DNA from: Podospora anserina | Taxonomy: Eukaryota | Direction of reading: 5' to 3' | Assembly: GCA_017654855.1 (NCBI GenBank) | Contig: CM030336.1 | Span: 992,001-1,056,000 of the forward strand | Length of the DNA stretch: 64,000 nucleotides | In this document: positions 23,342 through 49,831 of the stretch, in pieces | How positions within the stretch are numbered: the first letter of the stretch is position 1 | Layout: every line of letters starts with the position of its first letter | Program-made: the position numbers and the translations under genes | The notes under the pieces: generated by a model | The model's database searches: none | Told to the model about the DNA's origin: nothing | Seen by the model: the letters and a program-made list of their open reading frames with translations, nothing else

Positions 23342-23670
23342 TCGGTGTGAGGGTTAAGGCTGTACTACTAGCTTCTTTTTGTATTACAGAGCTATCGTGA
23401 AATTGTGAAAATGGTCATTTTGTCTCTTGTATGTCTGACCATCACATGGACTGAGTACCTACCTTACTCTTCAGGACCGTGTTCGAATGCAAGAATGCCA
23501 CATGTCTGTTGTCAGATAAGTACGAAACCTTGGGCACTCTCACCCGGTGCCAGCTCGGTACGCAATTCAGCGCTGCGCAGCTGCTGCGCCGCTTCTGAGT
23601 GTATAAGAGAGCCCGTTCCCAGCTCCTAAATATCTGCAACCCTCAACCCCCTTGCTCCTCACTCCATATC

Positions 23671-28109: not shown

Positions 28110-28934
28110 GAGGAATGTGAGAATAATTACGAGGAGCTCTTTGCGACGCTACTCAAGAAGGGATTGCAGCAAGCATTGTTCTTCGGCGCAGCGAGAATGG
28201 ACCTGAAGGCGCTCAGCATAGTTTTATCCATAGATCCATCTGCGTTGTTATCAGCGAGAGACCGTCTTTGGAGAACTCCTTTGCATATAGTGGCTGAGAG
28301 AACAGTCGAGGCGGCATGCTTCTACAAAAAGCCAATCTTTACCAGTCATATAGAAACTGTTGCACAGATGGGCTTTGACGTTCACGCAAAGTCTGGTCTT
28401 GGCTGGACGGTTTTAGACCATTACATGCACAAACTAGGGTGGTACCTCGATCCTCACCAGCACGTCAACTATCGTCCCTCCAACCCCGCCAGCATTCTGA
28501 ATGGTATCAAATACCTTGTCGGTAGCGGTGTGGCCTGTCGAGAGTCAACAGCACACAGACTGGACCCGCTGGATGTGGCGGTACTATTCGAGCCCCACCT
28601 GCGAAGCCCTGACTTTCCAGCCCAGCCGTTTGGGCCGGACTTCAGCTTCCAAGCACTCAAGGACTCCAAAATATTGATTGATGCTTTCAAAGAAAGCTCG
28701 ATAAAATTCATGCTTGATCATGGTAGCGACCTATCGAACGGCAGAGCTCTGCGGACTGCAATGAGACACGGGAAGCTGTGGAGTCTGCTTTTTCTCCTGT
28801 TTGCCGGTGCAGACGTTAATAATAGAGCCCTTTCTCGCAGTCCGCTTGGTTACGCTATTCACAGGGGGCTTGTGGGCGATTCCGGGCCGGTAACCAGCTC
28901 AATCATCCATCAAGGTCTTTCGTTATCGGCATAA
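28110..28934 (+). pseudogene. Ankyrin-repeat protein fragment (no native start)
   Basis: RTPLHIVAE, GFDVHAKSGLGWTVLD, LLFAGADVNNR..SPLGYAI ankyrin-like motifs; the frame opens directly out of the RIPed repeat. Confidence 0.65.
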
Positions 28935-31900
28935 GATTGAAGGGCTGGAGAAAACGTTGACCAGTGGGCGAAAGGCGCTCGAAGATCACCTTCTGGCTGA
29001 GACCTGGTTTGTCATGCCAGAACATTTAGCCCAAGATGTCATTCCGCTAACACAAATACACCGCAGCACACAGGTGAAAGCTCTGGAGATACAGAACACA
29101 GAAGGCTTTTCGAACCTAGACAGCACCTTGCGTCACTTCATCACCGCCTGCTCACAGGGCCACACCCAGCTGACACAACTGCTCAACAATCAGTTCGACA
29201 ACCTTAACGCCAAGTTAATACGCGAGTCAAACCAGACACAGCAACAGGTTTCCGAACTCTCTACACGCCTGGAGCATGAATCAGCTAGTCGCGCCAAGCA
29301 TGCAGACTTTGAACGGTTTCTAGCAAGCTTGAAATACCCCAGGATGAACGAACGAAGGAACAATGTGGCCGACAGTTACACAACAACGTTTGAATGGGTG
29401 TTTAGAACCTCAGCCAGCGAAGAAACGTGCGACCAGTCTTCTATCGAAGGCTCTGTGGATGGCGATGCAGGGTCTGACACACTTAGCTACAACGAGAGCG
29501 ACATCGATAGCTTATATGATGATTCGAGTGAGGATGAAGAAGTGTCAGTTGGGCTCGTTGAATGGCTTACATCCGTCAATGACCCACTTTTCTGGATCAG
29601 CGGCAAACCAGGATCTGGAAAGAGCACATTGATGAAGTTTCTGCTTCAAAACCACCGGACGAGGAAACATTTGGAGTTGGCTTACCCTGGAGCTTTAATC
29701 GTCCTCCATTTCTTCTGGCTGGCTGGCCAGGACATGGAACGAAGTATCAAGGGCCTCCTGTGCTCCTTACTACATCAGTTGATCAGCGAACGCGAGCAAG
29801 GGTACATCGATATCGTCCAACACCTTGGCTTTGGCAAAGTGAAGTTAAAAGAGGGCTGCAGTGATTGGTCAACAAAGGAACTCCAGGAAACAGTCTTTCA
29901 TGTTCTCGCAAGCTCGTCCGCGCCGGTTCTCATATTCCTCGATGGCCTCGACGAAGTTGATCCGTCCGACGGACCGCTTACACTCCTTAAGCTTGTCAAT
30001 GATATATGCGCGCTTCCAAACATAAAGGTCTGCACCGCAAGTCGCCCGGAGCCAATATATAGTCGACAATTAAGCATGAAACCTTCGTTTCGAGTCCAGG
30101 ACCTTACAAGCCACGACATTAAGAAGTATGCAAAGGAGCACTTGCGATCTTGCACAACGGCTGAGTTCCGGCATTCGTCCTCCTTCCGTGATTTGATTGG
30201 CGAAATTGCCGAAAGGGCAGATGGCGTTTTCTGTGGGCGGCGCTGTCCGTGAAGAGTCTTCAAAGGGGTTTAGTTCATGAGGATTCATTGGATGAGCTTC
30301 AACGTCGACTGGACGCGTTACCTGACGGCCTGAACGCACTGTATCAAGATATGTGGAACCGGCACAACGAAGATAACCAGGTGTATCGCGAAGATGCCGC
30401 GAGGTATCTTAACCTCATCCTCGATAATAAGAAGTTTCACATGTTGCTCGCTTGGGCCGGGGTTCGTGCCACCGCCATTTTCTAGCCAACACTATCACGT
30501 TACGATCTGCAATGATAAACGATCAAAGCAATTTTACCGTATCGGGGGATCAGTTCATCAAGAGTCGTTCAAAGTTCGCGAGGGAAATTGTGACTCGATC
30601 TGCTGGCTTGGTCGAGATCTCCACCTCTGAGCAAGACATAAGGCCGAACATCGACTTCATGTTCATTCACCGATCGGCCAGGGACTTTCTTACAGAAACC
30701 TTAGAAGGTCAAGCAATCCTCAACCATGACAAGACTACACCGAAAGAACGTATGTTGAGTCTCATGGAAGCTTATCTTGCGATGGCCGCATTCTTCGACC
30801 CCAAAGGTTATGGATCCGAAACTCACCCCTGTGGCAATGAGAGCCTATTCTCAGTCATCAGCCAGCTAGATTGGAACATGAAGTACGAGAATAACCCTGT
30901 CGCACGGTTCCTTTCACAGCTTTTATTAAGTTACATGAATGAGACATCATCACTGACGTCCAAACTCGGGCCCAGTTCCACAGGCTTCATTCACCAACTT
31001 CGCCGTGTATGTCAAAAATCTCGGTGGGTTTTACAGGCCTTCTCTGCTTTGAAAACCGATTTCCTTGGTGTAACTGCACAGTGGGCCTTTACACCGTGGT
31101 TGATACATGAAAGCGAGCACGATGAGAACGCCTTTGGTTTATTTTCAGCCAGCTACAGGACTTACCTGATATTCTCAGCGTTGCACACACGGGCGGAGAT
31201 CCTTACCAGATGGAATTCAAGATGGCACCGCACAAATGCCTTCGATACGGTGTCTTATTTGACACGCACTGGTAGCATCATTCCCAATAGTCGCGCCCTT
31301 CGCTGGCAATTCGTTTATCTAGGGGACATACTAGCATCGGTATGCTGCACGACCACGATTCTCGCTGCCTGGCTTGAGCTTTTGTTCTCCACTGGCATAG
31401 AAGGAACTGTTGTCGACGGCCACGGTGACATGCAACATCTCATTGATATTGTTGAGCTGTGTGAACGGTTCATTGAGCTGGGAGAGGACATCAAAAACAG
31501 AGTAATCTTTGTATTTGACAGGGCCAAGGACGATAGCGACCCCATCGGGATCTGGAGTTTGGGGGATTATACAGGCTTCCGTGAAGGGCTCCCTTTCTAT
31601 CGACATCAGACTGGACTTCTTGTGGACCTCAACGTGGCCTTCCTTCTTGGGGCCTTTTGCGATTGGGCCATGATACATTGCCGCGACCCATGGTGTTGCA
31701 AAGGGTGGAAGGCTTGCGGCATATAGCATCAAATTGTAAGGAATGCCAGGCTGTGGGCATAACGAGATACACCGACGATACCAATGAGTGGATCATTCAC
31801 AAGCCAGACCGCGCTTCAAGGTACCTGGATGGAATTAAGGACATACAATACAATGGCAAAGGGAAGTGGACTATCCCTGTGGAGTTTAAATCTGTCAAGG

Positions 31901-32004
31901 AAGAGACACAAAAGACGGACAATAATTCCACACCAGGAAGTGGAGGGGTCTCTGATGAAGCGAGGGCTTCTTGTCAGATGGCAAGACGTGGAGGGGGATC
32001 CTAG
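28894..32004 (+). pseudogene. NACHT-domain (NLR-like) gene, 5'-truncated, with three -1 frameshifts
   Basis: FLASLKYPRMNERRN, TTFEWVF, Walker A WISGKPGSGKSTLMK, HFFW, Walker B IFLDGLDE, KVCTASRPE, ADGVF(LW) broken by a missing T at ~30230; continues in ORFs 30249, 30452 and 31657, each shifted by -1. Confidence 0.8.
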
Positions 32005-32154
32005 TCGGTTCAGACATGTTGAGTATGACGGCGTTCTGCCTTGAAAGGCGATAGGCATAGGTGGCTGCCGTTCATATACCTAGGTACTCTTTCTCACGAC
32101 AAGTTGTTAGTTTCTTAGGTATCAAATTTATCATATGGGTAAAGGATGTCTAGC

Positions 32155-34622
32155 TCAGCCCTCAAAGTGAAACTCCAGTCCATGTCCATACGTATCTGCG
32201 ACCAATGGCAGCCCTTCCATCTCCAAAACCTCACCCCCGCCATCACGACCATTGTCACCAAACATTCTCCAAACCTCCTCCGTCTTGACAGGACTAGTAA
32301 CCAACACCTTAACCGTCGGTCCTCCCCACTCACCTTCAACCTGTCCCTGCCTCAGCCCGACTAACACCCTCACCGCATGCAGCAACCACTCCTCAAAATA
32401 CCTATTCTCATAATGCACCACCCCATCCACCACAAAAACAACATTAACCTCCCTCGCCACCCTCTTAACCAACACCCCCAACAACCAACCCAACACCTCA
32501 ACCCCCATCTCTTGCCCCCCACCAAGAAACTGAACATCCTCCTCCGTCACCAACAACCCAGGCAACTGCCTGATCAACTGACAAATAACCCCCCCCAACA
32601 TCTTCACTGCACCAGCGTACGCATCATCTTGTTCGGTGTGTAACCCACAGAAAAAAGAAAGGGTGATATACTGTCCTTGCCGCTCACGCAGGGTGTCGAT
32701 TAGCGTCCCCGCCGCGAACGATAGTCCGGATATAAGAGGGGGATGGGCACGGTCGAAGTCGCCGTGAATGAGAAGGCGGGAGGAAATAGGGGTAGTGAGC
32801 CAGGAGCGGAACTGGTCTGTGTTGAAGGCTTGTTCTGCTCTTATGCGTTGGCGGAGGGGGATAAGGGGTTGGTGGTCGAGGATTTGGGTTAGGTCGGTTA
32901 GGTCGAAGTTGGGGTTTGGAAGGAGGAGGGTGTGGGATAGGTGGTTTAGGAGGTACAGGGCGTAGTTTAGGGGTTGTGGTTGAGGTGAGTAAATTGGCGA
33001 GGGCTGGGAAAACGGCGAAGAGAGGTGAGGTTGTTGAGGAAACCACGCTAGCTGGGGCTGTGGGGTGGATGGTCGATTGGGGTGTGATTCTATTTGTAAA
33101 GGTGTGGACCATGGCAATGGGTGGTATGTTGGGGAGTGTGTTAACTGCCTTAACATGGCATGGCCGGCACGGAGGAATTGATCTGCTCGAGATGTGTCAG
33201 TATTAGGTTTCCTCTCGAGCGATAGGATCTACCACTGACCTTGTTGACTCTTGAGCTGTTCTTGGAACCATGCAAAGTCTCGCTCACGTTCTTGTTGGCG
33301 TTTCGTTTCTACATCATCGAGCATTTGTTTGAAAGTGTTCGCCAAGCTCACGCAAGTGTCTTCAATCACTTCGACAACGACTTGGGTGTTGCTGTCCACT
33401 TTGTCTTGGATAGCCTGAACGCCTTGTTTAACGTCCTGTCTGACTTCTTCAATGCCAAGTTCAATTCGCCATGTTCCTATCAACGACCAGGGTTAGCTGC
33501 TGTGTTCACATTAGGTAGGTACGGTAGGTACCTAGTTTACGCATCATGCAAAGAGGTGAATAGGTACTCACGGGCCAGTGTTCTTTGCATATCTTCCCTC
33601 ACCCTGGAAATATGTGAGTTCTGGGCCTGGTGTATGAGCCAGTTGCTTTGCTCTTGAACTTGGTCCAGCTTCTCGAGTAATAGCCCCTGGTACTTGCTGC
33701 CCCGGAAGACAGCAGACGCGCCTCTCCTGGCTAGTGGGTTGACAGTTAATAGACAGGATGTATCGTTGAAGGACTCCTTGTTGGAGTCATTTAGAGAAAA
33801 GTATTACCCACCTTGATGGCTAAGAAAGAAGATAATTGTCTCCTCAATAGCAACAAATATCGCCACCACAAGTCCTATCGACGCTTCTCTGATCTTCTCG
33901 TCGTCTGGAAACGTGGCCAGGAATACGTCGATATCACCGAATATGCGTTCCAGTCTGTCCCCGTCAAAGCTTGTGGTAACCTTTTCCCGTACTTCTGACG
34001 CTATTTGCGCAGCCTGTTTCAGTGTGATCAGCAGGAAGGAAACAGTGAGATCGGGTTAATGGACAGTTACCTCCAAGATGACCTCCATCACTGTCAGTAC
34101 TGGTGATATATACTCGACATCAGGGACAAGCTTGACGACTCTCCTCGCCAGATCAGAGTGCTCAACCACTTGGCGCCATCCCCTCTTGCACTTTCCACGA
34201 AATCCCTCTTTTGTACCATCGTACATCTCTCGGGCCCTTTGGAGTTGAGCATAGACACCTTTCCAATCTCGCTGTGAGCAGATACTGCATCCCAAACTGG
34301 CCAACGTTGGTAGCTCCTCGACGGCCTTTTGGTGGAAGTCTTTCATAGCTTCACCAAATATGGAGCTCCAGAAATTCATTGCTTCAATCGCAGTGGGTTG
34401 AACTGTGCCTGTCCCATTTGGGCAAGTTTGTAGTGGAAGTGTACCTTGAACAGCGGTGCTGTGAGTGAAGACGGCCACATATTGCTGGGTTCTTGTATTG
34501 TATCGAGCGTCTGAGTCCTCGAACGCAGCATGGTACTGGTGAGCCCCGTTGTCGATGAAATCTACCGACAGTGGTTGTGATTGCAGTCTTGTGAACAGCC
34601 CTCGTTCACCTGTACGAGCCAT
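32155..34622 (-). CDS. NACHT-like protein with degenerate Walker A (helical N-terminus plus P-loop-like C-terminal domain); 5 exons, appears intact
   Basis: Four GT-AG introns splice ORFs 34056..34622, 33229..33483 and 32155..33156 plus two short exons in frame; C-terminal FRSWL..SRLLIHG, SFFCG, VICQL, VFVVDGV, KVLVTSP with no GK[ST]. Confidence 0.8.
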
Positions 34623-35078
34623 GATGTTGGGGAAGTTGCCAGGAGGAAAGGTCGTTGTGCTGATTTCGTGTTCTTGAATGGGAAGGTCAGGTACCTAAGG
34701 TAGATACCCTTGTGGAATAACGTCCCGTGGACCCACATGGCCATCAGTCAGACATGCGGTCGGTTGGGTAGGGAAGGAGTAAGGACTCGGTAGAGGTTGC
34801 TTCCCACCACGGCAACATTCGACCCCGAAAATGTGCACAGTGCGACTTTGCTATGCTAAGCTACACAGGCTTCCTGACAGCTGGTCTCTAGCTATTGGAA
34901 GGGAGCAGTACACCGCAGGCGAGATTGACAGTCGGTAAGACGTGAGAGCGGGGAAATGAACATTGTCATGTGAATCCTGCTCAGACACCAAGAGACAAGC
35001 TTATCATGATCGACCGGACCTGTTATATTTACTACAAGACGGGCAATCGATACCATCAGCATCTAATCCCCATCAACA

Positions 35079-38000
35079 ATGCCAACAACTACTCCTTCGG
35101 CGCCCGAGGCCCAATCCGGCCCTGCTTTGTTGGAAGCCTCGGCCTTGGGCGAACCAATACAGACCAGCACAAGTCCAAATTCGTGTCAAAGACCTTCCGA
35201 GGACATCCACGCGAATGGCACCCGTGAACTCGAACTGATGTGCGAGGACAAGAATGAGGCAAATGACTGTGGTTCTTTGCGTTGTGGCGATGTCGGCGAC
35301 TGTAATAAGGTGAATTCTCCGTCGCGCTTGGGCCAGGGTAAAAAGGATGGCGAGACTACATTCGAACGGCAAAGAGAATGGACCAGAGCACGCCACGATA
35401 TATCTACCTCTTCAGATCACGATAGCGACGATGGCATTGTTTTCAATTCCCCCCGCTTACACCCTAGCAGTGGGCAGCCCGTTGACTACAACAAAGCTGG
35501 CATGATAGCACGGCAGAAGATCAGAAAGCTGGAGTGGGAGCACTCCGCAAGCACCCGGGAGTGGCAACTAGTGGGGGAGATGGCACGTGAAATTGGCCGA
35601 TTGCGAAAGGCGGAAGAAGTTTGGAAGAAGGAACGACTCATACAGACGAGGCCTTCCGTGCCTAAAATAGTGGCTAGAAGGGCCCAGCTTGGTAAACCTG
35701 TTCAGACAGAACAATCGGCGGATCACGGATCGCACTCCGAACGGTCGGGCGTGGCACAGAGCGGGGTGCTGGTGAATCGAGTCGGGTGGGACGTCTTCAG
35801 GACTCGCACTGCAGAGCTTGAGGATATAGCCGATCTTGATCCTCATGAGTTCGCTGTCATTGAAGTTCTAACAGAGGAGCCACTGGTGACCAGCGAAGCC
35901 AAGTTGAAGAGCCCTTCACAGCTCGATAACACGGTAATGATGTGGGGAGACTTGGTTCGACAACCCTCCGAAAACCATGGGGGCGAATATGCATCGTCCC
36001 CGGGAATACGAGGAAAGAGTAGAGGGCAAGAACCCCTCCCAGAACGGATTCGGATCCGCTCTAGGTATATCATCGAGGAGCTTCGCACCATCATTGGAGG
36101 TCGCAACAGGTTTTTACCACCGGATGTCGAGCACTACGACGGTACAACCAAGTATCTAATCAAATTCAAGGACTCCGCCCTGACCATGGTTCGTCCCTTT
36201 CGAACACTGTTCCATTACAAAGATGACATTGTGGAAAGACTGGGTCAGCTACAAAACAAACTCCACTCAAACACCCAGCTGCACTCGAAGCTGAAGGACC
36301 GTACCCGTACATATACCGAGCACCTTAAATGCCTGAAGGAGCTCATCGACACACAACTACAGCCCAGGATCGATCATTTAAACAGCAACCGGTGTCAATT
36401 AGTATCGTTTGCCGATCTTTGTTATCTCTTCAAGCCAGGTGATGAGATCATCCAAAGAAACCGGCCTCAAGCCTTTCGAATCTACGCAGTATCCAGCACT
36501 GACCATGGAGCCACGCCTACGTGGCAAGAGTACAAAAAGCCGAATGTTGCATCAGACGTGAATGAGGATATTAAGCCGCAGTTGGCCATCAGTTGCAGAT
36601 ATCTCGACTTTGATGGGAAGAGAGTTGGTCCAGTGACTCGGTGCTTCAAGATATCACAGTTGAGTGGTGAAAAGCCCATCACGTCGCTTGATGTCTATCC
36701 GTTGCGATTTGCTGAGACCAGAGCAGATCGTGAGCAGGGCCACACACCATTTCGAAATCGTCTAATTGACAGGGGAAAGATGTTCCTCGACATCGCGGCG
36801 GTAAGGCATATGCACTACAGCGGCTTAACAATCGGTGACAAGGATGAGGTTGACAGCCAGGTTGTCGTTGATTTTGAGGAAGCCTTTGCACAGATAATGG
36901 TACATCGTGGAGGGTGGAATTGGAATCCATTCTCGGCATCGAATTTTGTCCAACGTCACAAACACGCTGTGTGTCAGCCTGTTGCTTGAGCAACAATATC
37001 CACAAGGATTCTCCTGTGGAGAAGATACAGCACGAGGAATACATGGCAAGTTGCATGCCTCAAGATACTACACAAGAGCCCCCGATCTCTGTGTATCCGC
37101 GATTGCTCCAAGATATACACGTCCACGTTTCTGTGACAGACAAGGACTACATCATCATGTCCATGAGAGCTTGTGGGTTTGTTTTGAGAAGCAGAAACTG
37201 GGGTGAGTATTACCCGCAGTTCTTGCAAACCTTACCTTCTGTGCTCGGGACTGGGGATCCTAACATAATATACACACCTTTCAGCGCAGCTCGACCTCAC
37301 ATACCTCGCCCCTCCGCACTTCCCCACTGCCTCCTCTCCTAGTGCCTCTGGATATAAACCACCTTCTGGACCTGCCAGCCAGATTTCACCACCACGTTTG
37401 AGCAGCTGGTACTTCCAGACGGCCATAAGGATATGGTCCTCTCACTCATAGCACAACACTATCGTGATAAGCAGATGCAAAATGATGAAAGGGACCAGGT
37501 CGACATCATCAGAGGGAAGGGTAAGTGTCGTTCTGTTACCTATCTAGGTACCCATCTTGTGGCACAGCACAAAATCGGCTAATCTGACACAAACCACTTA
37601 CTAGGGAAGGGCTTAATCTTGCTTCTCCACGGTGCCCCCGGGGTGGGCAAGATAACGACCGCAGGTTCGTATTGTCTGCTGGTGTTTGATGCTATCAAAA
37701 ACGCTCGCTAAGTTAATGAATAGAAGGAGTTGCGGAGATGTTTCAGAAGCCTTTGTTCCAGATTACCTGTGGTACGTCATCTTCGTCAACGAGAACAAAC
37801 ATACATCTGACTCCGAGGATTAGGTGACCTAGGTGTTACGGCCAGGGAAGTGGAAAAGCTTTGGAAACCCATTTTGCACTGGCCAGTAAATGGGGCTGCA
37901 TCCTTCTGCTAGACGAGGCCGATGTATTCCTCGCTGCGAGAACGCCACAAGACTTCGTAAGAAACGGCATGGTGTCAGGTTAGTAACCATCGGTCCACAT

Positions 38001-39052
38001 GCCTTGTCTTAAACGAACACGTACTAACATGAACAGTCTTTCTGCGCGTCTTGGAATACTACTCCGGCATCTTATTCTTGACCACCAACCGCATTGGTGA
38101 CTTCGACGAAGCCTTCGGATCCAGAATCCTTATAAGTCTACACTACCCGCAGCTGGACCTTCCGTCAACGCTCAAGATATTTGAGCTCAACCTGGATCTG
38201 ATCCAGGATCGGTTCAAAAGAAGAAACCGAGAACTCAGCATCGACACAAGGGCCATATTGGAGTATGCAGCTGGGTACTGGACCAACAACGAACACATGC
38301 GCTGGAATGACAGACAAATTCGAAACGCCTGCAATACCGCACTCGCGCTGGCTGAATTTTCAGCCCAAGGAGGCGATCATACAAAGGTGGTGGATGCCAA
38401 CGCCAAAATATCACTGAAACTGGAGCATTTGGAGGTTGTATCCAAGGCTTACCTCGGCTTCATCACTTACCTAGAGGACGTTTTTGACAAGGATGCCGAC
38501 AGACGGGCGAGGCAGATGATGATTCGGGCACGGGAGCACAAGAAGTCGATGGAAAAGGGAGACCGGCAGCGTCAACTATCCTTTTCAGGTGGACTGGCGC
38601 AGGTCCCAATGATGCCTACTCATACGACTGGCCTATGGCCCCCTATGGCACAACCCCCACAGAGCCCCCTTTCCACACATCCAAGCGAGTCACCAGGCTA
38701 CCCGACAACTTCAAATCAGATCACTCAGCTTCCGAGCTACCCCAGCCACCTATCTGGCCAACACACATCGCAGCCTCCGCCTGGGCAGGCATATCTACAC
38801 TACACCCTCGCGAGTGCTTACCCGCAAGGTCTTCAGCCCGGCAGCACCACCTATCAACAGCATCATCAGCCTTCTACCATGGCTGGCCCGTCCCAACCAC
38901 AAGCGCAAACCACTCTGCAGCCAGCTCCAGGTTGGCAGCAAGCAACCGCTTATCCCCATGGATCGATGCCAATCAGCCAGCCCGGCCAAGTAGTTCCTGG
39001 ACCTCAGCAGCCTGTTGTGCCAGTGGTAGAGCCACAACAATCACAGCCCTAA
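35079..39052 (+). pseudogene. Large fungal AAA+ ATPase with long N-terminal region and Q/P-rich tail; three -1 frameshifts
   Basis: PERIRIRS, LFKPG, YLDFDG, VVVDF, FEQLVLPDGHK, GKGKGLILLLHGAPGVGKITTAE, CGDLG, WGCILLLDEADVFL, FLRVLEYYSGILFLTTNRIGDFDEAF, WNDRQIRNA; frameshifts at ~36890, ~37300-37380 and ~37855. Confidence 0.85.
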
Positions 39053-39277
39053 GCATAGTTGCGGTGCTCCCTTTCGGTCAGTGAAGTCTTGCCTGTTAGG
39101 CCAAACCATTGTCCAAGACATATACAATGTCACAAAGCAGGAGGGTGGAAGACATATACAAGGTACTCCAGCACTTGAAAGCGTCAATGGAGGAGCTGTC
39201 TGTACATGCTTCTATTTTACTGGCCGCGAATCACACGACCGCACGCGAAATGGTGATGTTCTGCAAGATTTGTCAAA

Positions 39278-39774
39278 GAGCGTTAGTTTCCGGACCCTGC
39301 ACTTTTTCTCAACGCACCCTGTGGGGCCCCTAAGATGTATCACGGACTGAAACCTCGTAATTTGTATGGTATTTTTCGACTTTTGCGTCCAACTATCACC
39401 GTCGCTACAGTTCAACGGTACACCTTACTACCGTCAAACCAACTTACTGCCGTCAAGCTAACTTACGGCTATCAAACTAACTTACGGCCGTCAAACTAAC
39501 TTGAAGTAATAGTAAGTAATGCTTTTTAGGGCAGCTTAAAATAATATCGTAATAAATTTTTAATAGTTAAAGTAAGGGTAGTTAAAGTAAAAGTCGTTAA
39601 AGTGAGGGTAGTTAAAGTAAGGGTAAGTATTAGGTATAACGGCAAATAGCTATATTACAGTATAATTCAATAAAGCAATTCGATATTTTTTTAGCGGGAG
39701 TTAGGGTTATATATAGTGGATTTAGCCCTACAGGGTACGTTGAGAAAAAGTGCAGGGTCCGGAAACTAACGCTC
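39278..39774. mobile_element. Non-autonomous TIR element (Mutator-like GAG...CTC termini), 497 bp
   Basis: ~50-bp near-perfect TIR GAGCGTTAGTTTCCGGACCCTGCACTTTTTCTCAACG; 8-bp TSD TTGTCAAA (39270-39277, 39775-39782); four internal 19-bp tandem repeats (~39424-39500). Confidence 0.88.
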
Positions 39775-40531
39775 TTGTCAAATAGCTATTTACCATTAGA
39801 CGAGATTAGATCCTGCAATGAGAGTGTCATTTTGCTATGCTGGTCTAAAGACAGGTGTGTCTTACCACTTGCCGGGTTCGAAGTATTTCCAAATCTTTCT
39901 ATGACGTGGTTTCGGGACTCAGCTAACTCAAGTTCGGTAGCCCTATGAAACTATCAGCCCCCATTCCCAACTTGAGCTGTAATAGTCCACTGCATGATGT
40001 TAAACGCCAGCTTAAATGGGGCCTCGGGGCAAGGGAAAACATTTGATTATCCGCTACTCGATATCTCAATGCCGAAGCACTAAGCGTTGTTGCTGCACCT
40101 TACAAGCCCACTCTTGTAGTCGGTAAGCCCGGTAGCCGCGAATGTTTCAGCATCTCGGCGAACATCCGTCGAGAAAACACTAAAGATTGAACCGATTGGA
40201 GCGCTTCGTGAGCAATCGTTACACGCGCTTCTATGCACCCCACATTACCAACGTAACATTGGTGTTGCAACGACTACCTTGCCCTGGCCTGACGTTGGCA
40301 AGCTCCGGCTTGGCACTACCTTGACCTTGATATCTTTGCCTAATCCATCACGGCAAACGAGCCGCAATGCTCCGTTCGGAAATTCAGTTCAAGCGAAAAG
40401 GCCATGGTATGACAGAGGGAAAGGGGAGGGAAGAGATAAAAGGAGGAGACAGTCGCCCTCCGGACCATCAGCATGTCTGGTTCTGACGAGTTCTCTTCTC
40501 CGGCAAACCAACCCCGTTCGCATCAGTCAAC

Positions 40532-41620
40532 ATGATCACCATCGGCACCCTCGCTCTCGCCCTCCTCACCGCCACCCAGGCGGTCGAGGCCCAGTCCTCC
40601 GGCTGCGGCAAGGCGCCCCCGTCCTCGGGCACCAAGTCCATGACCGTCAACGGCAGGCAGAGACAGTACATCCTCCAGCTGCCCAACAACTACGACCGCA
40701 ACAAGCAGCACCGTGTCGTCATTGGATACCACTGGCGTGATGGCTCCATGAACGATGTTGCCAGCGGTGGCTTCTATGGTCTTCGTCAGTTGGCCGGTGA
40801 CAGCACCATCTTTGTTGCCCCCAACGGCTTGAACGCCGGTTGGGCCAACAACGGTGGCGAGGATATCACCTTCACCGACCAGATTGTTACTATGCTCAAG
40901 AACGACCTCTGCGTTAACGAGGGCGAGTTCTTTGCTACCGGCTGGAGTTACGGCGGTGCCATGAGTCACAGCGCTGCCTGCTCTCGTCCTGGTACGTATC
41001 CTCGCCTCCATGACGAAGCCATAACCCAAAATTCGTCTTGCTAACTTGATACCTCACCAGACGTCTTCAAGGCCGTAGCCGTCATTGCCGGCGCCCAGCT
41101 CTCGGGCTGCAGCGGCGGCAACTCCCCCGTCGCCTACCTCGGTATGCACGGCGCCGCCGACAACGTCCTCCCCATCTCCATGGGCCGTCAGCTCCGCGAC
41201 AAGTGGCTCCAGACCAACGGCTGCACCTCCAAGAACGCCCCCGAGCCCTCGTCCGGCCAGCAGAACCACATCAAGACCGAGTACTCGTGCACTCGCGCCG
41301 CCGTCACCTGGATTGCCAACGGCGGCGGCCACGTCCCTGACCCGAGCGGCAGCAACGGCGTCAAGTTCGCCCCCGGCGAGACCTGGTCCTTCTTCAACGC
41401 TGCCGTCGGTGGTGGTGGTGGCAACCCCAACCCCCAGCCCCAGCCTACTACCGCCCCTACTAATCCCCAGCCTACCCAGCCTACTAACCCTGGCAACCCT
41501 GGTGGAAACTGTGCGCCGAGATGGGCGCAGTGCGGTGGTCAGGGATGGAACGGCCCTACTTGCTGCGAGAGCGGGAGCACTTGCCGTGCTTCTAACCAGT
41601 GGTACTCTCAGTGCCTTTGA
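40532..41620 (+). CDS. Secreted carbohydrate esterase family 1 (feruloyl/acetyl xylan esterase-like) with C-terminal CBM1
   Basis: Signal peptide; [19 protein letters not shown] nucleophile motif; intron 40992-41060; P/T/N linker; CBM1 [16 protein letters not shown]...NQWYSQCL; strong codon bias. Confidence 0.92.
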
Positions 41621-42134
41621 GTTTCGGGGGTAGTGCGGTGGAGCATGTCTTGATGGGTCTAGTGATCATAGTTTCATTCAATAACAATGGAAAATACCAG
41701 ACGCCTCAAGATCAGCCATTCAACTTTGCCGGAGTGGGTAGTACTTGTTGTTTAAATATCGAAGAGAGTAAGGTAGTCCTGGGCGGATATGCAGAATTTC
41801 GGGTGGAAGTGTGGGCAAAATTATTATGTTGAGTTCTAAGAATAGGGGGTATCAATGATGAAGCGAAATTCTCGTCAGAAATAAACATTAAAAGTTGACC
41901 GTCTCAATGACTGGATCTGCCATAGCCTTGATAAGGTGCATAAGGTTTAAACAGCCCTGATACCACCATCCGCGTGACCCTGATCCGTATCCTGTCGCCG
42001 CGGAGAAGCAGGCGATTGCTGACCTGGACTCATCGTCGGCCCGATGACCACAGTCCCAGAACCTAGCACAGGTCCAAGAACTGCATTTAGGTTTCCCAAG
42101 ACCGGCCCCCGCGTGGCAGCTGTTGTCCCGCTGT

Positions 42135-43405
42135 TCATCGAATGCCCATCACTGACACTTGAGGAAGGAGGCCGGGATAAACTGGCAAAGGTGTGTCATC
42201 CTGCTCCACCTGCTCTCTCGCGCGAGTTCCCCCATTAGCGCTAGCCCTACCACCACCACTACCCCCTCCATTGCCGCCTCCATTATCTCCTCCAGCATTT
42301 CCCATCTCAATTCTTTCCTCCACACTAACCGGCTTTTTAGGCCCCAGCCAGCGCTCAGGATACTTGTGTCGAAATCCCCACAGAAGCCACAGTTTAATCT
42401 TCAACCAAAACGACATCTCCTTCCACTGCTTCCTCAGTTCCTCCTGGTCCTCGGCGTTCCTCCCGACTTCGTATTTGGTGACAAAGATCATGAGCAACGT
42501 CGCAATAAACCACCAGCATACCGTGCCGCACCGAAGAGCCCACCGGCCCAACATCAACCTCCTGAACCAGAAAATATTTTCAATAAAGCCGAGAACAAAG
42601 AGGGCTCCGACGATGGTAATCATGACGGCGGGCCCTTCTTTGATTTTGCTGCAGCGTCCGAAAGCCTGATGTGGACAATTTTTGATCCGCGGATCCTCTC
42701 GCCTGGCAGGTAACATTGTTTAAGGTAGTACTCGATGCCCCATGCATACGAATCTCTCAGTGCCTCGATGGGCGCTGGCGCAATGTCGGTTGGTTGTACG
42801 TGTAACGTCGCAGATGTGTAGTAGGAGGTTTCGGTGAGTGCCACATAGTTGTCGGCGGAGTAAGCCCAAATAGTTCTTGTAGATGTAACAATAGTAGGTT
42901 CTTCGGCGCTGGCCTTCGGGCCCAGAATAGTGGTGAGCTCTCTTGGAAGTCGTCCAAACTCCTCGAGGTTGATCGCTGTCGTGTATTCCAAGGGGGTTGG
43001 ACAGGTGGTCGGGGCGGTGTATGTCAGGTTGACAAGCCATTTTGTCGTTCCCTCCACCGTGTGGGTGTAATAGTAGTCGAAGGAGTCCGCCTCCAGCTCG
43101 GAGGGGGGGAGCGCGCCAGCAGGATAATAAACCTCGAGTACCTCCAAATCCCACCCGTTGTCAGTCTCAGTCGAGGTTGTTATCGGTGTTGCGTCGGGTG
43201 GCTGGGTTGTATGTGTGGCCAACAAAGGATATCCAAGTCGCGTTGTGGTGCATGGTTGATTCGTTGCACCAGACTCGTCGCACCCAGAAGGCGAGGCAAC
43301 TTGGTTTAGGACATATATTTGTGTGGCAGTCCAGAACCTCGCCGCTGCTATTGGGTACAGGCTGGCTGTTACCACCAACCGTGCTAAAAGGCCTATCCGT
43401 GCCAT
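42135..43405 (-). pseudogene. Secreted Thr-rich glycoprotein with C-terminal TM segments, split by a -1 frameshift
   Basis: Signal peptide in ORF 42620..43405; TAPTTCP motif; continues via CYLPGE/DPRIKNC into ORF 42135..42716 (TM helices) after a 1-nt deletion at ~42700. Confidence 0.65.
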
Positions 43406-44040
43406 GGTGAAATGTTACTGGTCGAAGCACTGACACCAAAAGTGAAGGGTCACGATCAAGGGCGGCCTTCTGGCGCATTTAAGACGAACACCTCAGGCGT
43501 CCTCAGTCAAGCAAACCCAACCAACACTGCCAGCTCAGCCCTCTTATTATTGGACCTTGGCAAGGCGAATATCAAGGGTTGGTTCTCGGCACAAAGCTTG
43601 GTGGCTTCACGGGAGAAGCGAAATGAGGGAGCCTACTTGACACTAACAGAGCGTCAGCTATTTTACATGGAGACGCGATAGTATTGACCGTAGCCAAAAC
43701 AGAAAGCATGCACTCCCAAGCTAGCCCCGCCAAAGTAGGTTAGCATGAAGGCTTTCTTTTCGCTCTCGATCCAATGAACAAACTGCATATGCCCTGCACG
43801 GTTCTTGTGTTTTCCATAGCGCGGGTACATGCTGGCATGCTGCGCCACAGATAAAGTTGACTTCAAACCTAACCCTGATTATGACAATTACCCCTGAACC
43901 CCTTAATGGAAGACGCAGGACATAGCAATGAGCTTGAACACAAACAATGGTAGTGCTCATCTACAATCTCTCACACTATGTACCATCTCACCGGATTTGC
44001 CGCTGACGAACGACACTTTCTATCCGATCAAAGGCCTACT

Positions 44041-45836
44041 CTTGTTCTCGATGAAGTCGGCACGCCATGATGTAGACAGGCTTGCTTCGGGATTCGTAAA
44101 CTTCTGGACGAGAGCCTTGATCATTTGCTTTCGTGGTGCTGGCATGACCAAGGTATCGATGGCATTAGGGTTTATATTGGGCTCAAAGCAATAAGCCACG
44201 TCAAGGGCTTCTGTTGCAATTCATTATTCGTCAGCAAGTGCTCTGGGGAGGCATTAACACCGTTGAAGACATACCCCAGGTTCTGGACTTCAGCACAATG
44301 CCGTACAAAAGCGAGTCGCACAGCAGGTATCTGTGGTTGGGATCGTGGTCTCCAGATCCCAAACTGAGATCCTGAACACGAGTGGGGTCTAGCAAATCGT
44401 ACGACGCATAAGTGAAATTTGGCGGAGGATGAGCTCGTCTTCCGTAACTGGTTAAGAGCATGTTAGACGAGAGGTTTCTCACAGGTCAGATGGGTGGGCG
44501 TAGGTAACAAGGTAGTCTTACCATTCTTCACAGCCACACATTGCCAGATTGTGTCCGATGTCGTTCGTATTGCAAATCTCGGGTGCCGCCGTAGGCTATT
44601 GAGCGTAGTAAGCTGAGGAATCTACATATACCCTGCCGTTGAGCTAGGTGATGGTGGCAGTTCTATCAGCAATGCACTGAAACAGCTGGAATAAATCCTG
44701 GTATATACTCACTGGCCCTGGGTTGGTGGCTTCGCGTAAAGGCCCACGACGCAACCCTTCGATCAAGGCGCTCTCCGATGGTTGCGGCTCGTCCCGATTC
44801 GAGTCGTTGTTTTGGTCTGGAGTCTAGCTTCCAGCGAGCGTTGGTCAAACAGCTCGCCATGGTAACGCATCTGCTTGCCAAGCAAAAGGTTGTACCACTT
44901 TCTACCGTTCTCTTCCAACTGTCTTTTGGTCTTGCCGCCATCAGTTTTGTCACGATACTCACAAGGAAACACTTTCAATGAAGTAATTGCACGTTCCCCC
45001 CCAAACGGGGGAAGAACAACCTCAGTCGAAGTTCTGCCGACGAACCGCCCGTCGTATCTCAAAGACCACAGCTTGATTTTGTAGGGTTCAAGGCGTTGCT
45101 TCACGTCGGAAAGTATGGCAGGGTCTGATACCACCGACTGTACCACATAGGCCTCAAGGTTACCTCGGAACTCGAGGTAGACAGTAGTGCCAGGCTTGAA
45201 CAAAAGCCAGAGCATCTGGAAGGTGCAGAGATCTTTGAGATGCAGGATGCGTTCAGCATCTATCTTGTCCTTGTAAACATTGGTGTGGAGATAGTCGAGG
45301 AGTAGTCCGAGATGTTCTGTGGTCTTGGGGTCCAACGCGCTATCCTGTGGACCTTGACGCAAGCTCTCAAGCTCCCTCAAATGATGCCCAATGACCGCAT
45401 ACGGCTCATCAAGCTCCAATGATTTCCCTTCTAGATCAATCTGGGGGTAGTAGCGGACAACCGTGCGAATAGCGTTGACGAGAGCTTACGATTCGATTAT
45501 GATCTTTGTCGCATGCACATTCACAGTGATGGACGCGTCACTCAGGATATGGGATAGCCTGTCGAGTCTCGATTCATCTGAGAGGTACCTGAAGGCCTCT
45601 GGTGAGTGAGAAGTCTTCAGAACGGTCACCACGCCAAATACCGAGGCTTTGAACTTCAGGACAGCGTGGCGGGCGACATCGAGGTCAAAGGTGGTGGGAT
45701 GGGGTTGTGTGCCTATATCTCCTCCTTCTCTGTCGAGGTATTGCACCGAGTATGCCACCATCGGTTGCTTGTTCCCATCCGCTTTCTCCTCTGGAGGCGG
45801 AATGTGGTCGAAACCTTTGCGTCGATAGATATCCAT
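44041..45836 (-). pseudogene. Second large fungal AAA+ ATPase (same family as 35079..39052), truncated at both ends
   Basis: IIIES..LVNAIRTVVRYYP, EPYAVIGHH, TFQMLWLLFKPG, YDGRF, NGRVYVDSSAYY (followed by a TAG stop), HRYLLC..YGIVLKSRTW, AIDTLVMP..RKQMIKALV, WRADFIENK; homology is lost just before the expected Walker A. Confidence 0.8.
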
Positions 45837-47522
45837 GCGGAAATGAGTGAGAACTTGAGATTTGTCCAGAAGAAAACACAAATGGCAAACACAAAAGAAA
45901 TGCAAAGGCTTGTTGTGGCGCTGTACGTCCAAGTGTTCAAATTCCTCTGCCACGCCATGTCCTTCTTCCATAAACGGCTCAAGAGATTTCTGGCGTCATT
46001 CAACAAAAGATTCTATGATAAGACGGTCAAGGCCATGGTCGACGGTATCCAAAAGACAATCGGCGACATCCGCAACGAGGCACAACATACGACTGAACTG
46101 CGTATCGAGCACATGCACCAAAAAATGACCGATATGGAGCCAATTTTGGTAAGGCTGCAACAACTCGGAGTCCAGACCCACGCGGACACGCAACAACAGG
46201 TCAACGTGAAACTTGTTGTGGCAGCAATTGGGTTTCAGAAACTGGGCGAGAATGCTGTACATCAGCTTGAAGGTATCGAAGACCAAGTCACGCACGGTAA
46301 GTTGGCCATTGTCTATCATCCTAAACCCACGAAAGGGCCACGGGGCCACGAATGTGCCGCGGGGCATCGAATCACCGTTGTCACACAGAATGTCAGCTCA
46401 CTTTTGAGTCGTCGCCTCCATTGCCTCTCCCGACTTCTACCCGCCTATTTAATGTTGAGTGTGGTAGCCCACAACAGCAGTTTTACTTCTGCATCTACCG
46501 ACGAGTTCCAACATTAGAGACATCACTACGCAGTCTCCACAACAATCCTCCAACATCCCGCCCGCCTTGACAGTTGACGAGTCAGCCAACAACCTAGAAA
46601 TGCCCAAATCAAACGCTATGGCGAAACTTCCCAACAAAGGGCATTCGACGAACCTGACAGAGGGCATGACAACCAGTGGTAGTATCTTCTGTTTGACCAC
46701 ATTTACACCCATAGAACTTAACTGACATTGCGATGGCCGGCAGAGACCACGATGCCCGAAGACTGGCGAATCCAACAATACACCGAAGCCCTCAAACCCT
46801 ACATCGAGAGCGCTGAAGAGTTCCATAGAGCCCAGTCCAACCCACAGACAACCATGGTTCCGCAAGACGTGTACGCCGAACTCAGCCGCAGGATATCCGG
46901 ATCTGGCTCCCGGATGATGTGGGTGGAAGGCCCGGACTCCCCTGGCAATCCTTTCCTTTCCCAGGCCGCCCTGAAAGCCGTCGATGGAGTCATGAACGCC
47001 GGAATCCCCTGCATTTCGTACTTTTGCAAGTCCCGATATAGCTTCGCCGGCAGTGGCAGAAGCGGGAGCAAGTCAGCATTATCCCATAGAGACGCGGCAG
47101 TCGTATGCCTCCTCTACTCCATCATCCGCCAACTTGCCTGGGTGCTTCCCAGAGAAGGCTTCAAAGCGGGCAAGAACCTTGACGGTGACCAATTCGCAAA
47201 GCTCAACGGGACCTTGCACAGCCTTCCCACCGCGTTGAACATCATCAAGGCACTCCTCGAATACACACCGCCTGTAATAAGTTGGGTCATTGATGGGCTG
47301 CAGTTCACAGGGGACAAGGAGAGCATGGGAAAACTTTGGAATTTGATAACTCTCCTGCGCGAGCACATGCAGGATTCGAGACGGGTGTCCAAGACTCTGT
47401 TCACAACTGATGGCCGGAATCAAGTGCTGGTGCGCGGCACAACGGCGCGGGAGAGGGTGGATGCATTGGGGCTGGTTCGTGCGAGGGGAGGAAAAGCTTT
47501 TCCGGGTGCAGTTTACATGTAA
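45837..47522 (+). pseudogene. Second NACHT-like protein with degenerate Walker A, N-terminus missing
   Basis: Helical EMQRLVVALYVQVFKFLCHAM..F segment, then MMWVEGP (no GK), SYFCK, LLYSIIRQL, SWVIDGL, KTLFTTDG; starts abruptly at the junction with the opposite-strand AAA gene. Confidence 0.75.
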
Positions 47523-49831
47523 CGTATATTAGAAGCGAGTCGTACATATAAGCGAGTCGTACATATAAGCGAGTCGTACAGTCTCCACCACGACGCGTCC
47601 TCCTTACACCTAACATCAATTTTTTCCACAACCCAACATACCTCCTACTTCAAAGGAAGCCAGGATACTCTTAGCCCTTGAGGCTCTCCAAAAGGACGAA
47701 AAATTAAGCCTCCGAGCTATAGCTAAGCTTTACAACGTACTACCTATAACTCTCTCTAACCGACGCGCTGGCCGGCCTATACAACGCGATACTACACCTA
47801 GATCGAAGAAGCTTATTTAATCCGAAGAGGAGGCTATTATTTATTATATTATTAAACTATTTACGCGAGCTTTTCTATTAAAGTTACGTAGTGTGGAAGA
47901 TATAGCTAACTAACTATTACGCGTACGCGACGCGCCCCCTATTGGTAAGCTCTAAATATATAATTTTATTAAACGTTAATTATAGTTCTATATACGTTTT
48001 ACGCGTAAATATAATTACTAGAGAATTAAATACGAGGATCCGAAAATTATTATTATATAGTTTATATTTATACGGAATATTAAAATTAAGTATAGTATTA
48101 TAAATAATAATATTTATAACTTTAACGAAATTAAGTTTATAATAAATATTATTTTCGTAAGTATAATAATTATAATTTTAAACGGCTTTAATAAAGTAAA
48201 ATTAATTTAGTTTAATAACCGTAAGTGTTATAACCCTGGTACAGGACGGTTGTGGGGCTACGGGAATAAGGGGCTAATCGGGAGAACGTATAGGGGAGCC
48301 AATTACAGTAAAGGCAGAGTGATCAGTGTAATCAAGGCATTAAGCAGACTAAGCAAAGGTAATCAGTGTAATCAGGGTACTAAGCAGACTAAGCCGAGGT
48401 AATTAGTGGCCTTGGGAGACTAATTACGGCTTAGTATAAGGACTATATATACGGAGGAACTAGCTAGTATAAATAGATAGTTCCGCAATATATAATTTAA
48501 GTTTATATTTACGGTATTTAGTGTTTACATTAAGACATCTTATCGTGCACTATTTAGCTACACCAAACTAATTATTAAAAGTTACCTTTAACCAATATCC
48601 CTTTTAAAAGTTCTATACAGGGGTTCGTTATAGTAAGTAAATAATAATAATTTAAGGAATTAATATTTTCGGCTAAACTATCCCGCTCTTTATTAATTTA
48701 ATTATATAATATTATTTTACTAATTAATATATCAAATATAATTTATTATTTATTTAATATATTATAATTATTAATAATAATTAAATTATTAATCTAATAA
48801 ATTTAAATTAAATTTAATACTTCGATTATTATATAGCGTTCCGTACGAAAAATAAATATTAATTATTAATCTTTAATAATTATAAAAATTATTATTTAAT
48901 TAAATTTAAATATTATTATTAATAAAATAATATTATTATTAATAAAATAATATTATTACGCTTTATATACTTTTATATTTTTTTTACTTTTTTTAATTAT
49001 TTAATATTAATTACTTTAAGCCGCTAAAATAAATATACAGCCGTTAAATCGAGGGTTTAATATATATATATATTAATTATATAAATAAATTTAAATTTCT
49101 TTATACCTTTCGCGAAATTTTTTTCGCTTTTATAATAAAAAAAAATATATAAAGTAACTTTATAAGTACTAACCTTATATTATATAATTTAAAAAAAATA
49201 TTTTCTAAATTAAATATAAAGCTTTATACGTTAATACTTTTATCTTTAAAGCCGGGTACGGTACTCCTTTAGGTATTTTAAATATTATAAAACCCCCGAA
49301 AAATTAATTTATATTTAATATTTATTAAAACTTATATTATTAATTATTAAAATAATTCCTTAACTTTAATATTAAATATTATAAATTAATTTATTAAAAA
49401 TAAAATAATTATAATATATTAAATAGCCCTCTTATAAATAAAGGTCTTTTCGCTCCGTAAGGCTAATAAGGTACTAAGTAAGTGCCGGAGAGCTAAAAAA
49501 TACGTATACAGCTCGGAGGATTACTTACTGTGTAAGATATATAGGATCTATTAAACTAAAAGGCCGTGGGTAGGGAAGTAGTAGAAGAAATATAGCCGGA
49601 TAGCGGTAATCTAAAGGGGGCTCGTACGACGGTTCGGTGCTGTGGTATATGCGGCAAGCCTGGCTATAACGCGCGCACTTGCTAGGAGGCTGGGGAATCA
49701 TCTGATTCAGCCGTTTCTAATGTAATTGTAGTTACTTCCTAATGTTATTGCGGTATAATTGAGGATAGTTGTTGTAGGGTGGTGGAGACTGTACGACTCG
49801 CTTATATATACGACTCGCTTATAATATACGT
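47522..49831 (+). mobile_element. Pogo/Fot1-type Tc1-mariner DNA transposon, RIP-inactivated
   Basis: TA TSD; TIRs ACGTATATTA.AAGCGAGTCGTA with internal 17-bp repeats; relic transposase from KEARILLALEAL to a C-terminal RCCGICGKPG(Y)NARTC zinc knuckle. Confidence 0.92.
48226..48632 (+). mobile_element. Solo LTR nested in the pogo element
   Basis: 5-bp TSD GTAAG (48221-48225, 48633-48637); TG start; 3' half shared with the LTRs at 27044 and 61132. Confidence 0.88.

Follow-up and report, generated by a model that had tools for sequence, protein, structure and literature searches.

Head-to-head sensor/helper pairs of plant receptors with a nucleotide-binding domain and leucine-rich repeats (NLRs), such as RGA5/RGA4 and RRS1/RPS4, are reportedly encoded by divergent neighbours, and one partner of a paired plant NLR tolerates or carries a degenerate P-loop. 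The locus described here lies in a stretch of 64 000 nucleotides of Podospora anserina DNA (GenBank assembly GCA_017654855.1, contig CM030336.1, positions 992,001 to 1,056,000 of the forward strand; called the window below, with all positions counted from its first letter). Two head-to-head juxtapositions, noticed in an earlier note on this DNA, were found again at the same places. In each, a gene A, coding for an NLR-derived protein with a NACHT-like domain from which Walker A has been lost throughout the family, stands head-to-head with a gene B from a family that, judged by sequence, encodes classical-clade AAA+ ATPases carrying DUF7025 at the N-terminus. Pair 1 (A1/B1) represents, in one copy, an old module of filamentous ascomycetes whose two genes are inherited together. 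The module is decaying in this genome, and pair 2 (A2/B2) is the junction of two truncated genes.

The plant pairs and the present one share divergent neighbours, a short shared intergenic region and functions split over two proteins (PMC12258605, in the part available). Both partners are NLRs in plants, whereas here only A is NLR-derived, B being a classical AAA+ ATPase with DUF7025; A is moreover without P-loop family-wide, without the winged-helix part and without a repeat sensor. In the available passages of the same source, a survey of Sordariales, head-to-head NLR–NLR pairs are rare (13 of 225 two-NLR clusters), and pairing of NLR-like genes with an AAA partner is not described in those passages (PMC12258605). 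Amyloid pairs of the NWD2/HET-S type also link a fungal NLR-type gene to an adjacent gene in regulated cell death, and have N-terminal domain classes (Goodbye-like, HeLo-like) of the kind seen in A. According to the portions available of PMC4344463 and PMC9815663, an amyloid motif common to both proteins connects a complete P-loop NLR with a pore-forming effector in those pairs, whereas in the present pair A itself bears the effector-type N-terminus, without nucleoside triphosphatase (NTPase) motifs or sensor, and the neighbour is an ATPase. A short motif common to A and B was not noticed, though no search aimed at one was made. Fungal NLRs of the T-NACHT type (TLP1-like, NPHP3_N) have the sequence family of the fold, the N-terminal class and the genomic company in common with A; A differs in its missing Walker A (counts below) and in ending after the core fold, with no repeats. 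As for B, its AAA domain is nearest to those of Rix7/NVL, p97 D1, Msp1/ATAD1, Afg2 and Vps4, and Walker A and a DEAD-type Walker B are kept in its relatives. B departs from these ATPases in having one AAA domain, a fungus-specific DUF7025 N-domain plus AAA_lid_13, extended disordered termini rich in Q and P, a pore-loop-1 position without aromatic residue and a dedicated, co-evolving neighbour.

The arrangement was followed through metagenome contigs, which were scanned with B alone as the query (nine aligned proteins); 80 loci (933 kb) were returned, corresponding to 73 unique loci at 95% identity, and A-like domains were sought in all six frames of the 80. A hidden Markov model (HMM) of the A2 family gave matches in 22 of these 80 loci, all of which except one weak match lay on the opposite strand, 2.5–6.4 kb upstream of DUF7025, and an HMM rebuilt from the first matches added five further loci of the same layout. 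Clustering of the upstream open reading frames (ORFs) of the remaining loci yielded a third, more divergent P-loop-less subfamily, termed A3-like. Altogether, a P-loop-less A-like gene adjoined B in 34 of the 73 unique loci. It was upstream on the opposite strand in 28 of them (22 A1-like, 6 A3-like, all 1.9–6.3 kb from DUF7025), downstream and convergent in five (tail-to-tail, 153–396 nt after the AAA domain) and downstream on the same strand in one (3.9 kb away); 30 unique loci were too short to judge. When at least 4.7 kb upstream and at least 1.5 kb downstream were available, 23 of 31 loci were paired. Gene starts in the metagenome loci are estimates; of 14 such loci in which the gap from ATG to ATG was measured, 12 had upper bounds of 271–1924 nt, and in the window the gap is 456 nt. 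No third conserved family was common to three or more of 23 pairs among 551 flanking ORFs. In Apiosordaria backusii, A1 and B1 have orthologues that are numbered consecutively in GenBank (KAK0716567.1 and KAK0716568.1) and share a 1.17-Mb contig; we take such numbering to follow gene order. The proposal of a conserved module with divergent adjacency, to be checked by a profile scan, is thus borne out by these counts. One 5.6-kb contig carries two tandem B-family genes (L018:63-5320).

The linkage follows the phylogeny of B. In the tree of AAA domains, the B1-like clade comprises 23 A1-paired rows (22 loci and B1 of the window), 11 rows that could not be judged and none that is unpaired. A3-like partners are confined to one subclade of 23 rows in the other half of the tree, beyond which no partner was present in six judgeable rows. 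One subclade of B has the tail-to-tail order (L039, L042/L049, L061 and L074, with 153–224 nt between the genes, and L026); as it keeps an A-like neighbour, the linkage survives a change of orientation. Over 23 pairs of the A1 type, the distances between A domains and those between B domains were correlated (Mantel r=0.80, a value reached by 0 of 5000 permutations). This co-phylogeny, which had been named as a check, indicates that the two genes are inherited together. Identity between nearest neighbours was 24–73% for A and 54–86% for B, which means that A evolves faster.

Gene A1 of the window is intact and spliced, and runs on the minus strand from 34622 to 32155 (approx. exons 34622-34071, 34013-33812, 33730-33572, 33476-33240 and 33182-32155, stop included), coding for about 720 amino acids. 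A tblastn alignment to the Cercophora samala protein P0001 covers its whole length in two pieces, one 72% and the other 68% identical, and shows four introns and no frameshift. For intron 33183-33239, confirmation came from a spliced contig in run X15; a contig of this run extends to 34672, about 50 nt upstream of the ATG. The protein is laid out as a helical N-terminal domain, a coiled coil, a P/Q-rich linker and a pseudo-NACHT domain; P/Q-rich low-complexity stretches are present in both A and B proteins. The helical domain (33540..34400, minus strand, exons 1–3) is DUF7708/Goodbye-like. Its exons gave no family match in Pfam; an HMM of the A N-domain matched exons 1–3 with E values of 3.8e-51, 1.3e-33 and 5.6e-23, and metagenome A partners share this domain and its intron positions with A1. 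A homologous single-exon ORF of locus L045 matched Pfam DUF7708 at 40.6 bits. By language-model features, the nearest clusters of the N-terminal half of A1 were Goodbye, DUF7708 and NACHT_N (0.92–0.94), and this half was predicted to be helical with a predicted local distance difference test score (pLDDT) of 70–87.

The pseudo-NACHT domain of A1 occupies the C-terminal 236 residues (32158..32865, minus strand). Where Walker A is expected it reads LLIHGDFDRAHPP, with no GxxxxGK[ST], and it keeps FFCG, QL, VVDG (with a Walker-B-like Asp) and KVLVTS. It matched Pfam NPHP3_N (T-NACHT) at 28.2 bits (cutoff 24.8); the homologues P0001, P0002, P0003, P0004 and P0014 scored 35.1, 33.9, 33.0, 36.8 and 28.5 bits, respectively, against the same cutoff. 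An AlphaFold2 model of the domain, built with 50 relatives, had a pLDDT of 90, a predicted template modelling score (pTM) of 0.89 and a five-stranded α/β core. In structural comparison (VIA Z scores), the closest matches were Cdc6 in the origin recognition complex (ORC) at 12.8, Avs3 (11.8), NRC2 (10.7), MalT (10.0), ZAR1 (10.0), CED-4 (9.9) and Apaf-1 (8.9), with MLA13 also within 8.9–12.8 and 148–185 residues aligned; Foldseek returned 30 matches at E≤1e-3, with ORC, Cdc6 and MalT on top. The modelled domain is a P-loop NTPase α/β core of the type found in ORC/Cdc6 and in signal transduction ATPases with numerous domains (STAND), as had been anticipated for the partner. The A proteins end about 20 residues past the fifth strand, with no helical or winged-helix domain, and Pfam recognised no repeat domain in A1, A2 or their homologues, so that the tripartite architecture of an NLR is not realised.

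Loss of Walker A extends over the superfamily. A search with the C-domain of A2 retrieved 554 cluster representatives at E≤1e-3, the full-length members of which have about 570–750 amino acids with the domain at the extreme end. GxxxxGK[ST] occurred in 0 of 117 A2-family domains that cover the site (consensus S..LWVEGP), in 0 of 26 A1-like ORFs, window A1 included, and in 0 of 11 A3-like ORFs, and two canonical NLR controls were positive. In both partners of the window the motif is absent at the P-loop position, in line with the description of these proteins as lacking GK[ST] and a repeat domain. The Walker B Asp of hhhhDG is invariant in a 50-row alignment (D147 of the window domain), and the position is variable in the A3-like subfamily (IETE, IDT, VEAG). 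The C-terminal domains of A1 and A2 showed no similarity by BLASTP (best E 1.6); with the HMM of the A2 family, A1 obtained 32 bits and P0004, a homologue from a lichen, 40 bits, whereas the window's canonical NLR reached 7.7 bits. The two domains, claimed earlier to be related and of NACHT type, are homologous at the level of sequence profiles.

Among AAA domains of solved structure, those nearest to B by sequence were from Rix7, NVL, Msp1/ATAD1, Afg2, p97 and Vps4 (E 7e-9 to 3e-4), the match to p97 spanning residues 241–357, a part of D1. The A. backusii orthologue of B1, P0005 (1218 amino acids), matched Pfam DUF7025, AAA and AAA_lid_13 at 84.3, 67.7 and 47.3 bits, and no NACHT or NB-ARC match was found for it in Pfam. 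At pore loop 1 the profile of the B family reads 'GD.LGttaseVe' and contains no aromatic residue; it fits 'iGGTSGES' of Rix7 D1 better than 'imDKWYGES' of Msp1 or 'nKYVGES' of Rix7 D2. The missing aromatic residue weakens a simple reading of B as an unfoldase.

B1 of the window (35079..39052, plus strand) is a DUF7025-AAA-AAA_lid_13 ATPase pseudogene. Its ATG at 35079 is separated from that of A1 at 34622 on the minus strand by an intergenic region of 456 bp (34623..35078), in agreement with the roughly 450 bp of shared upstream DNA noted before. The ORFs match Pfam DUF7025 and AAA_lid_13, with the DUF7025 domain at 36321..36854 on the plus strand (hmmsearch E 1.5e-63, Pfam E 2.3e-24). Three −1 frameshifts on the plus strand were called from the alignment with P0005 and a three-frame view: the first at about 36893..36897, in an exon that is uninterrupted in four relatives; the second at about 37370..37385, between AQLDLTYLAP... 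and ...DFTTTFEQLVLPDGHKDMV; and the third at 37853..37860, in GGAAAAGC, between ...DLGVTAREVEK and ALETHFALASKWGCILLLDEADVF. Four metagenome loci (L003, L008, L012 and L033) read the regions of the first two in a single frame. Walker A is GAPGVGKI (37631..37654, plus strand; Ile codon ATA at 37652-37654), where P0005 has GAPGVGKT; GK[ST] was present in 68 of 71 metagenome B sequences that cover the site, relatives carrying Thr or Ser in place of the Ile. The frame that opens at the ATG ends at 36989, and the sole possible product, of about 637 amino acids, would comprise the N-terminus and DUF7025.

The introns 37520-37603, 37663-37721, 37771-37822 and 37976-38033 of B1 were removed in RNA-like contigs. 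As the spliced exon resumes at the ancestral acceptor, 37823, the mRNA carries the third frameshift. A DNA contig of run X10, from a different study, spans 32000-39305 with two substitutions and no gaps, and an assembly error is therefore unlikely. B1 of the window cannot encode an ATPase and is a transcribed pseudogene, contrary to the notion that the ATPase of pair 1 is functional. Spliced transcripts of A1 and B1 occurred in the same RNA-like run (its RNA label being guessed), which agrees with the expected co-expression.

At pair 2, B2 (44026..45836, minus strand) is a pseudogene remnant made up of the N-terminus, DUF7025 (44838-45311, minus strand; Pfam E 1.5e-23) and a short pre-AAA piece (44026-44163, minus strand). 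No AAA domain was found in any frame before the next gene, and no B protein aligns past the pre-AAA piece. Relative to its relatives, B2 has an in-frame TAA at 45486..45488 (minus strand) inside the conserved motif I.I.S..L..A.R. Its DUF7025 region is 28% identical to that of B1 (E 3e-12) and nearest to those of L073, L067 and L047, and B2 falls, with 98% local support, among B genes lacking an A-like neighbour. Of a large AAA+ ATPase of one family in each pair, DUF7025 in both copies has stood; the ATPase itself has not, B2 being without AAA domain and B1 frameshifted.

A2 (45843..47522, plus strand; approx. exons 45843-46295, 46519-46656 and 46737-47522) is a 5'-truncated copy of a DUF7708 plus pseudo-NACHT gene. 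Its DUF7708 match in Pfam covers profile positions 57–143 only, and its C-domain (46761-47516) has GPDSPGNP in the place of Walker A. The C-terminal ORF alone had no Pfam match at E≤0.1, the family being assigned through the Podospora pseudocomata protein P0014 (DUF7708 plus NPHP3_N) and the HMM cross-match to A1. P0014 aligns to A2 only from its residue 48, which corresponds to position 45840. A full-length paralogue, about 91% identical, exists elsewhere in the genome (DNA run X10; spliced contig in X16, depth 32), and its contigs in X16 and X10 continue before 45839 with the missing coding sequence, not with B2. Homology to both the orthologue and the paralogue thus ends leftward at a breakpoint at 45839..45840, with A2 to its right, and the A2/B2 junction is a duplication or rearrangement rather than a shared promoter. 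The two genes do abut, at this breakpoint, in the place that the earlier note gave (45836/45837); its start of A2 is corrected, since the first usable ATG is 45843, not 45837, and the 5' part is missing. The observation that the pairs have no obvious DNA identity stood as well (no shared repeat of 40 nt or more). As pair 2 was formed by rearrangement, the recurrence of the arrangement within 15 kb is not independent evidence for a module, and this argument of the earlier note falls.

Some further observations concern the decay of the copies. At the sites where A2 differs from its paralogue, the window copy has A/T at 17 sites and the paralogue at 8, a mild bias of the type left by repeat-induced point mutation. 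DNA run X10 joins 43494 to 43880, skipping 385 nt, and RNA-like contigs are loose-ended at 43880-44043, which points to an element that is polymorphic or repeated at 43494-44043, exactly where B2 loses its AAA domain. Both B copies keep an open N-terminus and DUF7025 (35079-36989 and 44763-45836) and have lost the ATPase part, which may be coincidence, or else the cell may tolerate or make use of products with DUF7025 only. Where the runs give no contig cover, as over most of B2 and A2, nothing follows about expression.

Taken as a whole, the data are best explained by a conserved A/B module that is decaying here and may work as a split NLR-like switch; to this explanation overall we give a probability of roughly 0.55. 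The mechanistic part, an ATPase B acting in trans on the dead NTPase A, is the likeliest of the mechanisms considered but is put forward tentatively, with the odds somewhat against it. A would combine an effector domain with an oligomerising scaffold and be unable to bind or hydrolyse nucleotide; the ATP-dependent step, be it assembly, release or resetting of A, would come in trans from B; DUF7025 would be the probable docking domain of B; and the N-terminal domain of A would provide the output. Because pore loop 1 lacks an aromatic residue and the domain resembles those of the D1 type in Rix7/NVL/p97, B would more likely be a nucleotide-gated assembly or switch partner than a threading unfoldase. 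The biology would be one of conflict, that is, non-self recognition or regulated cell death, a role suggested by the fast evolution of A, the changing flanks and the frequent decay. The 'remodelling ATPase plus adaptor/sensor' mechanism and the non-self role of the earlier note are likewise what we infer, not what was observed. In a wider version, the pair would be a new fungal two-component immune or cell-death switch: the dead scaffold would bear a death-type N-terminal domain, its on/off step would have passed to the neighbouring ATPase, and across Pezizomycotina several A subfamilies (A1-like, A3-like and perhaps the large A2 type) would each have an ATPase clade of their own. The odds are somewhat against this version.

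Several points weigh against this explanation. A1 is intact and transcribed, although at least two of the isolates sequenced have a broken B1; either A is not strictly dependent on B, or the module as a whole has died only recently here. Eight unique loci with long flanks contain no A-like gene, and in one more, L080, a canonical P-loop NACHT-ankyrin NLR takes the head-to-head place instead; the link consequently belongs to particular clades of B and not to the whole family. (In L080 the canonical NLR, with GKPGSGKS, lies at 556-3732 on the minus strand and B at 6264-7682 on the plus strand, with flanks of about 6.3 kb upstream and 185 nt downstream.) The 80 loci were selected as those matching a single B1-like query best, the breadth of the distribution is derived from named homologues only, and the neighbours of the A2-type subfamily (554 representatives) lie outside the adjacency counts. 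The trees were computed with FastTree and carry local support only, the AAA-domain tree having 70 rows. The RNA label of runs X15–X17 is a software guess, and processed transcripts are demonstrated by the spliced joints only. Finally, binding between A and B and any phenotype of the pair are so far proposals. A complex prediction of full-length P0002 (A) with residues 335–620 of P0005 (the DUF7025 region) scored 0.00; it was run without alignments or controls and gives no verdict.

Two other explanations accept the linkage as functional and interpret it differently. In the first, a toxin-antidote or guard system, A, with a death-domain-like N-terminus and a self-assembling scaffold, would be constitutively dangerous and B would continuously dismantle or hold it, so that loss or inhibition of B would release A and kill the cell. 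Fungal NLRs have Goodbye/DUF7708 N-termini that the N-terminus of A resembles, A and B are tightly linked and co-inherited, and the extractase Msp1/ATAD1 is among the nearest solved relatives of B, all of which would suit such a system. The window nevertheless contains an intact, spliced and transcribed A1 beside a thrice-frameshifted B1, a state that should be lethal unless A1 is inactive, and an extractase or unfoldase would be expected to have an aromatic pore loop, which B lacks; we consider this explanation unlikely. In the second, the products would make no contact and the genes would merely be co-regulated by a shared bidirectional promoter or chromatin domain in the same response. This would account for the head-to-head order of 28 of the 34 neighbour cases, for the short gaps between the start codons (upper bounds as given above; 456 nt here) and for the presence of both genes in the same RNA-like run. 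A shared promoter is, however, ruled out in the tail-to-tail subclade (L039, L042, L061 and L074), and the strong correlation of A-to-B divergence also speaks against co-regulation alone, which makes this account rather improbable.

The linkage could also result from joint transfer of a selfish or mobile two-gene cassette, for example carried as cargo of a large mobile element or acting as a killer element, rather than from host function. The flanks are unconserved, as seen from the absence of a family common to at least three loci among the 551 flanking ORFs; the window copy lies between an NLR gene, an inverted repeat resembling a miniature inverted-repeat transposable element (MITE) and an AT-rich block; and the copies in the window have decayed. 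Differing flanks would, on the other hand, also be expected from distant species, the identity of A between nearest loci being 24–73%, and no transposase, recombinase or terminal repeat was associated with the pair in the window, so that a cassette appears quite improbable. That two expanded families came to be neighbours by chance, in an accessory region rich in NLRs, is hardly credible. Pair 2 looks exactly like such a case, and both families have many members; for loci of the pair-1 type, chance is refuted by the orientation of the upstream matches (28 of 28 on the opposite strand, 1.9–6.3 kb from DUF7025), the B1-like clade (23 paired and no unpaired among judgeable rows) and the Mantel permutations (0 of 5000), to which the consecutive accessions in A. 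backusii can be added.

With regard to the setting of the pairs, the closest protein matches of the window are from Sordariales (C. samala, A. backusii and Podospora), and the introns of its genes are short and of the type GT..AG. A canonical P-loop NLR (Ank-NACHT/NPHP3_N-DUF7791) is located near pair 1 at 28068-31726. Fragments of an NWD-type NACHT_N domain at 24958-26570 (E 2e-23 and 3e-4) are not followed by a NACHT domain and are probably an NLR relic. The pairs had been said to sit among NLR-like genes and transposons; the NLR-like neighbours are confirmed by these two features, and the transposons are not, Pfam showing no transposase or other family in ORF 47614-47820, the only flanking ORF tested. 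Just 3' of B1 lies the MITE-like element (39276-39776), with 52-nt inverted arms that are 96% complementary and 397 nt between them; contigs of DNA run X10 end at its borders, and a 15-nt insertion follows 39604. Between the two pairs are a secreted esterase-like gene with a C-terminal fungal cellulose-binding module (CBM1; 40487-41620), whose intron 40991-41059 a spliced contig from X16 confirms, and a secreted-looking ORF (42620-43414) for which Pfam has no family. An AT-rich block with 13–30% GC extends from about 48 kb on. At the other side of the window, a secondary-metabolite cluster (5207-24483) comprises a highly reducing polyketide synthase (KS-AT-DH-MT-ER-KR-ACP; 5207-13254, minus strand), a major facilitator superfamily (MFS) transporter (14164-15817), a cytochrome P450 fused to a flavodoxin/FAD/NAD reductase (16762-20447) and an FSH1-type hydrolase (23869-24483).

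The pairing of a pseudo-NACHT protein with an AAA+ ATPase is apparently undescribed. A fungal pair of an NLR-like gene and an AAA+ gene was not found in the literature, the supplementary tables of PMC12258605, PMC13449251 and PMC9815663, which might list such genes, lying outside the search, and no paper naming DUF7025 or DUF7708 was found in full text. According to the parts available of the two recent NLR surveys of Sordariales/Podospora, one requires GxxxxGK[ST] (PMC13449251) and thereby excludes A by design, and the other requires a nucleotide-binding domain plus C-terminal repeats (PMC12258605), which also excludes A, and sought only NLR–NLR head-to-head pairs. Surveys that select for the P-loop or for repeats would miss the P-loop-less family (at least 554 clusters) together with its link to an ATPase.

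What the window itself teaches is that the local copies are mostly dead and that the eye-catching recurrence was an accident of rearrangement. The module provides the first genomic context for DUF7025, DUF7708 and AAA_lid_13, three domains listed in Pfam as of unknown function. If the split-switch explanation is true, an NLR-type scaffold could be driven by an ATPase in trans, and research on fungal immunity and cell death would gain a compact, directly testable two-gene system.

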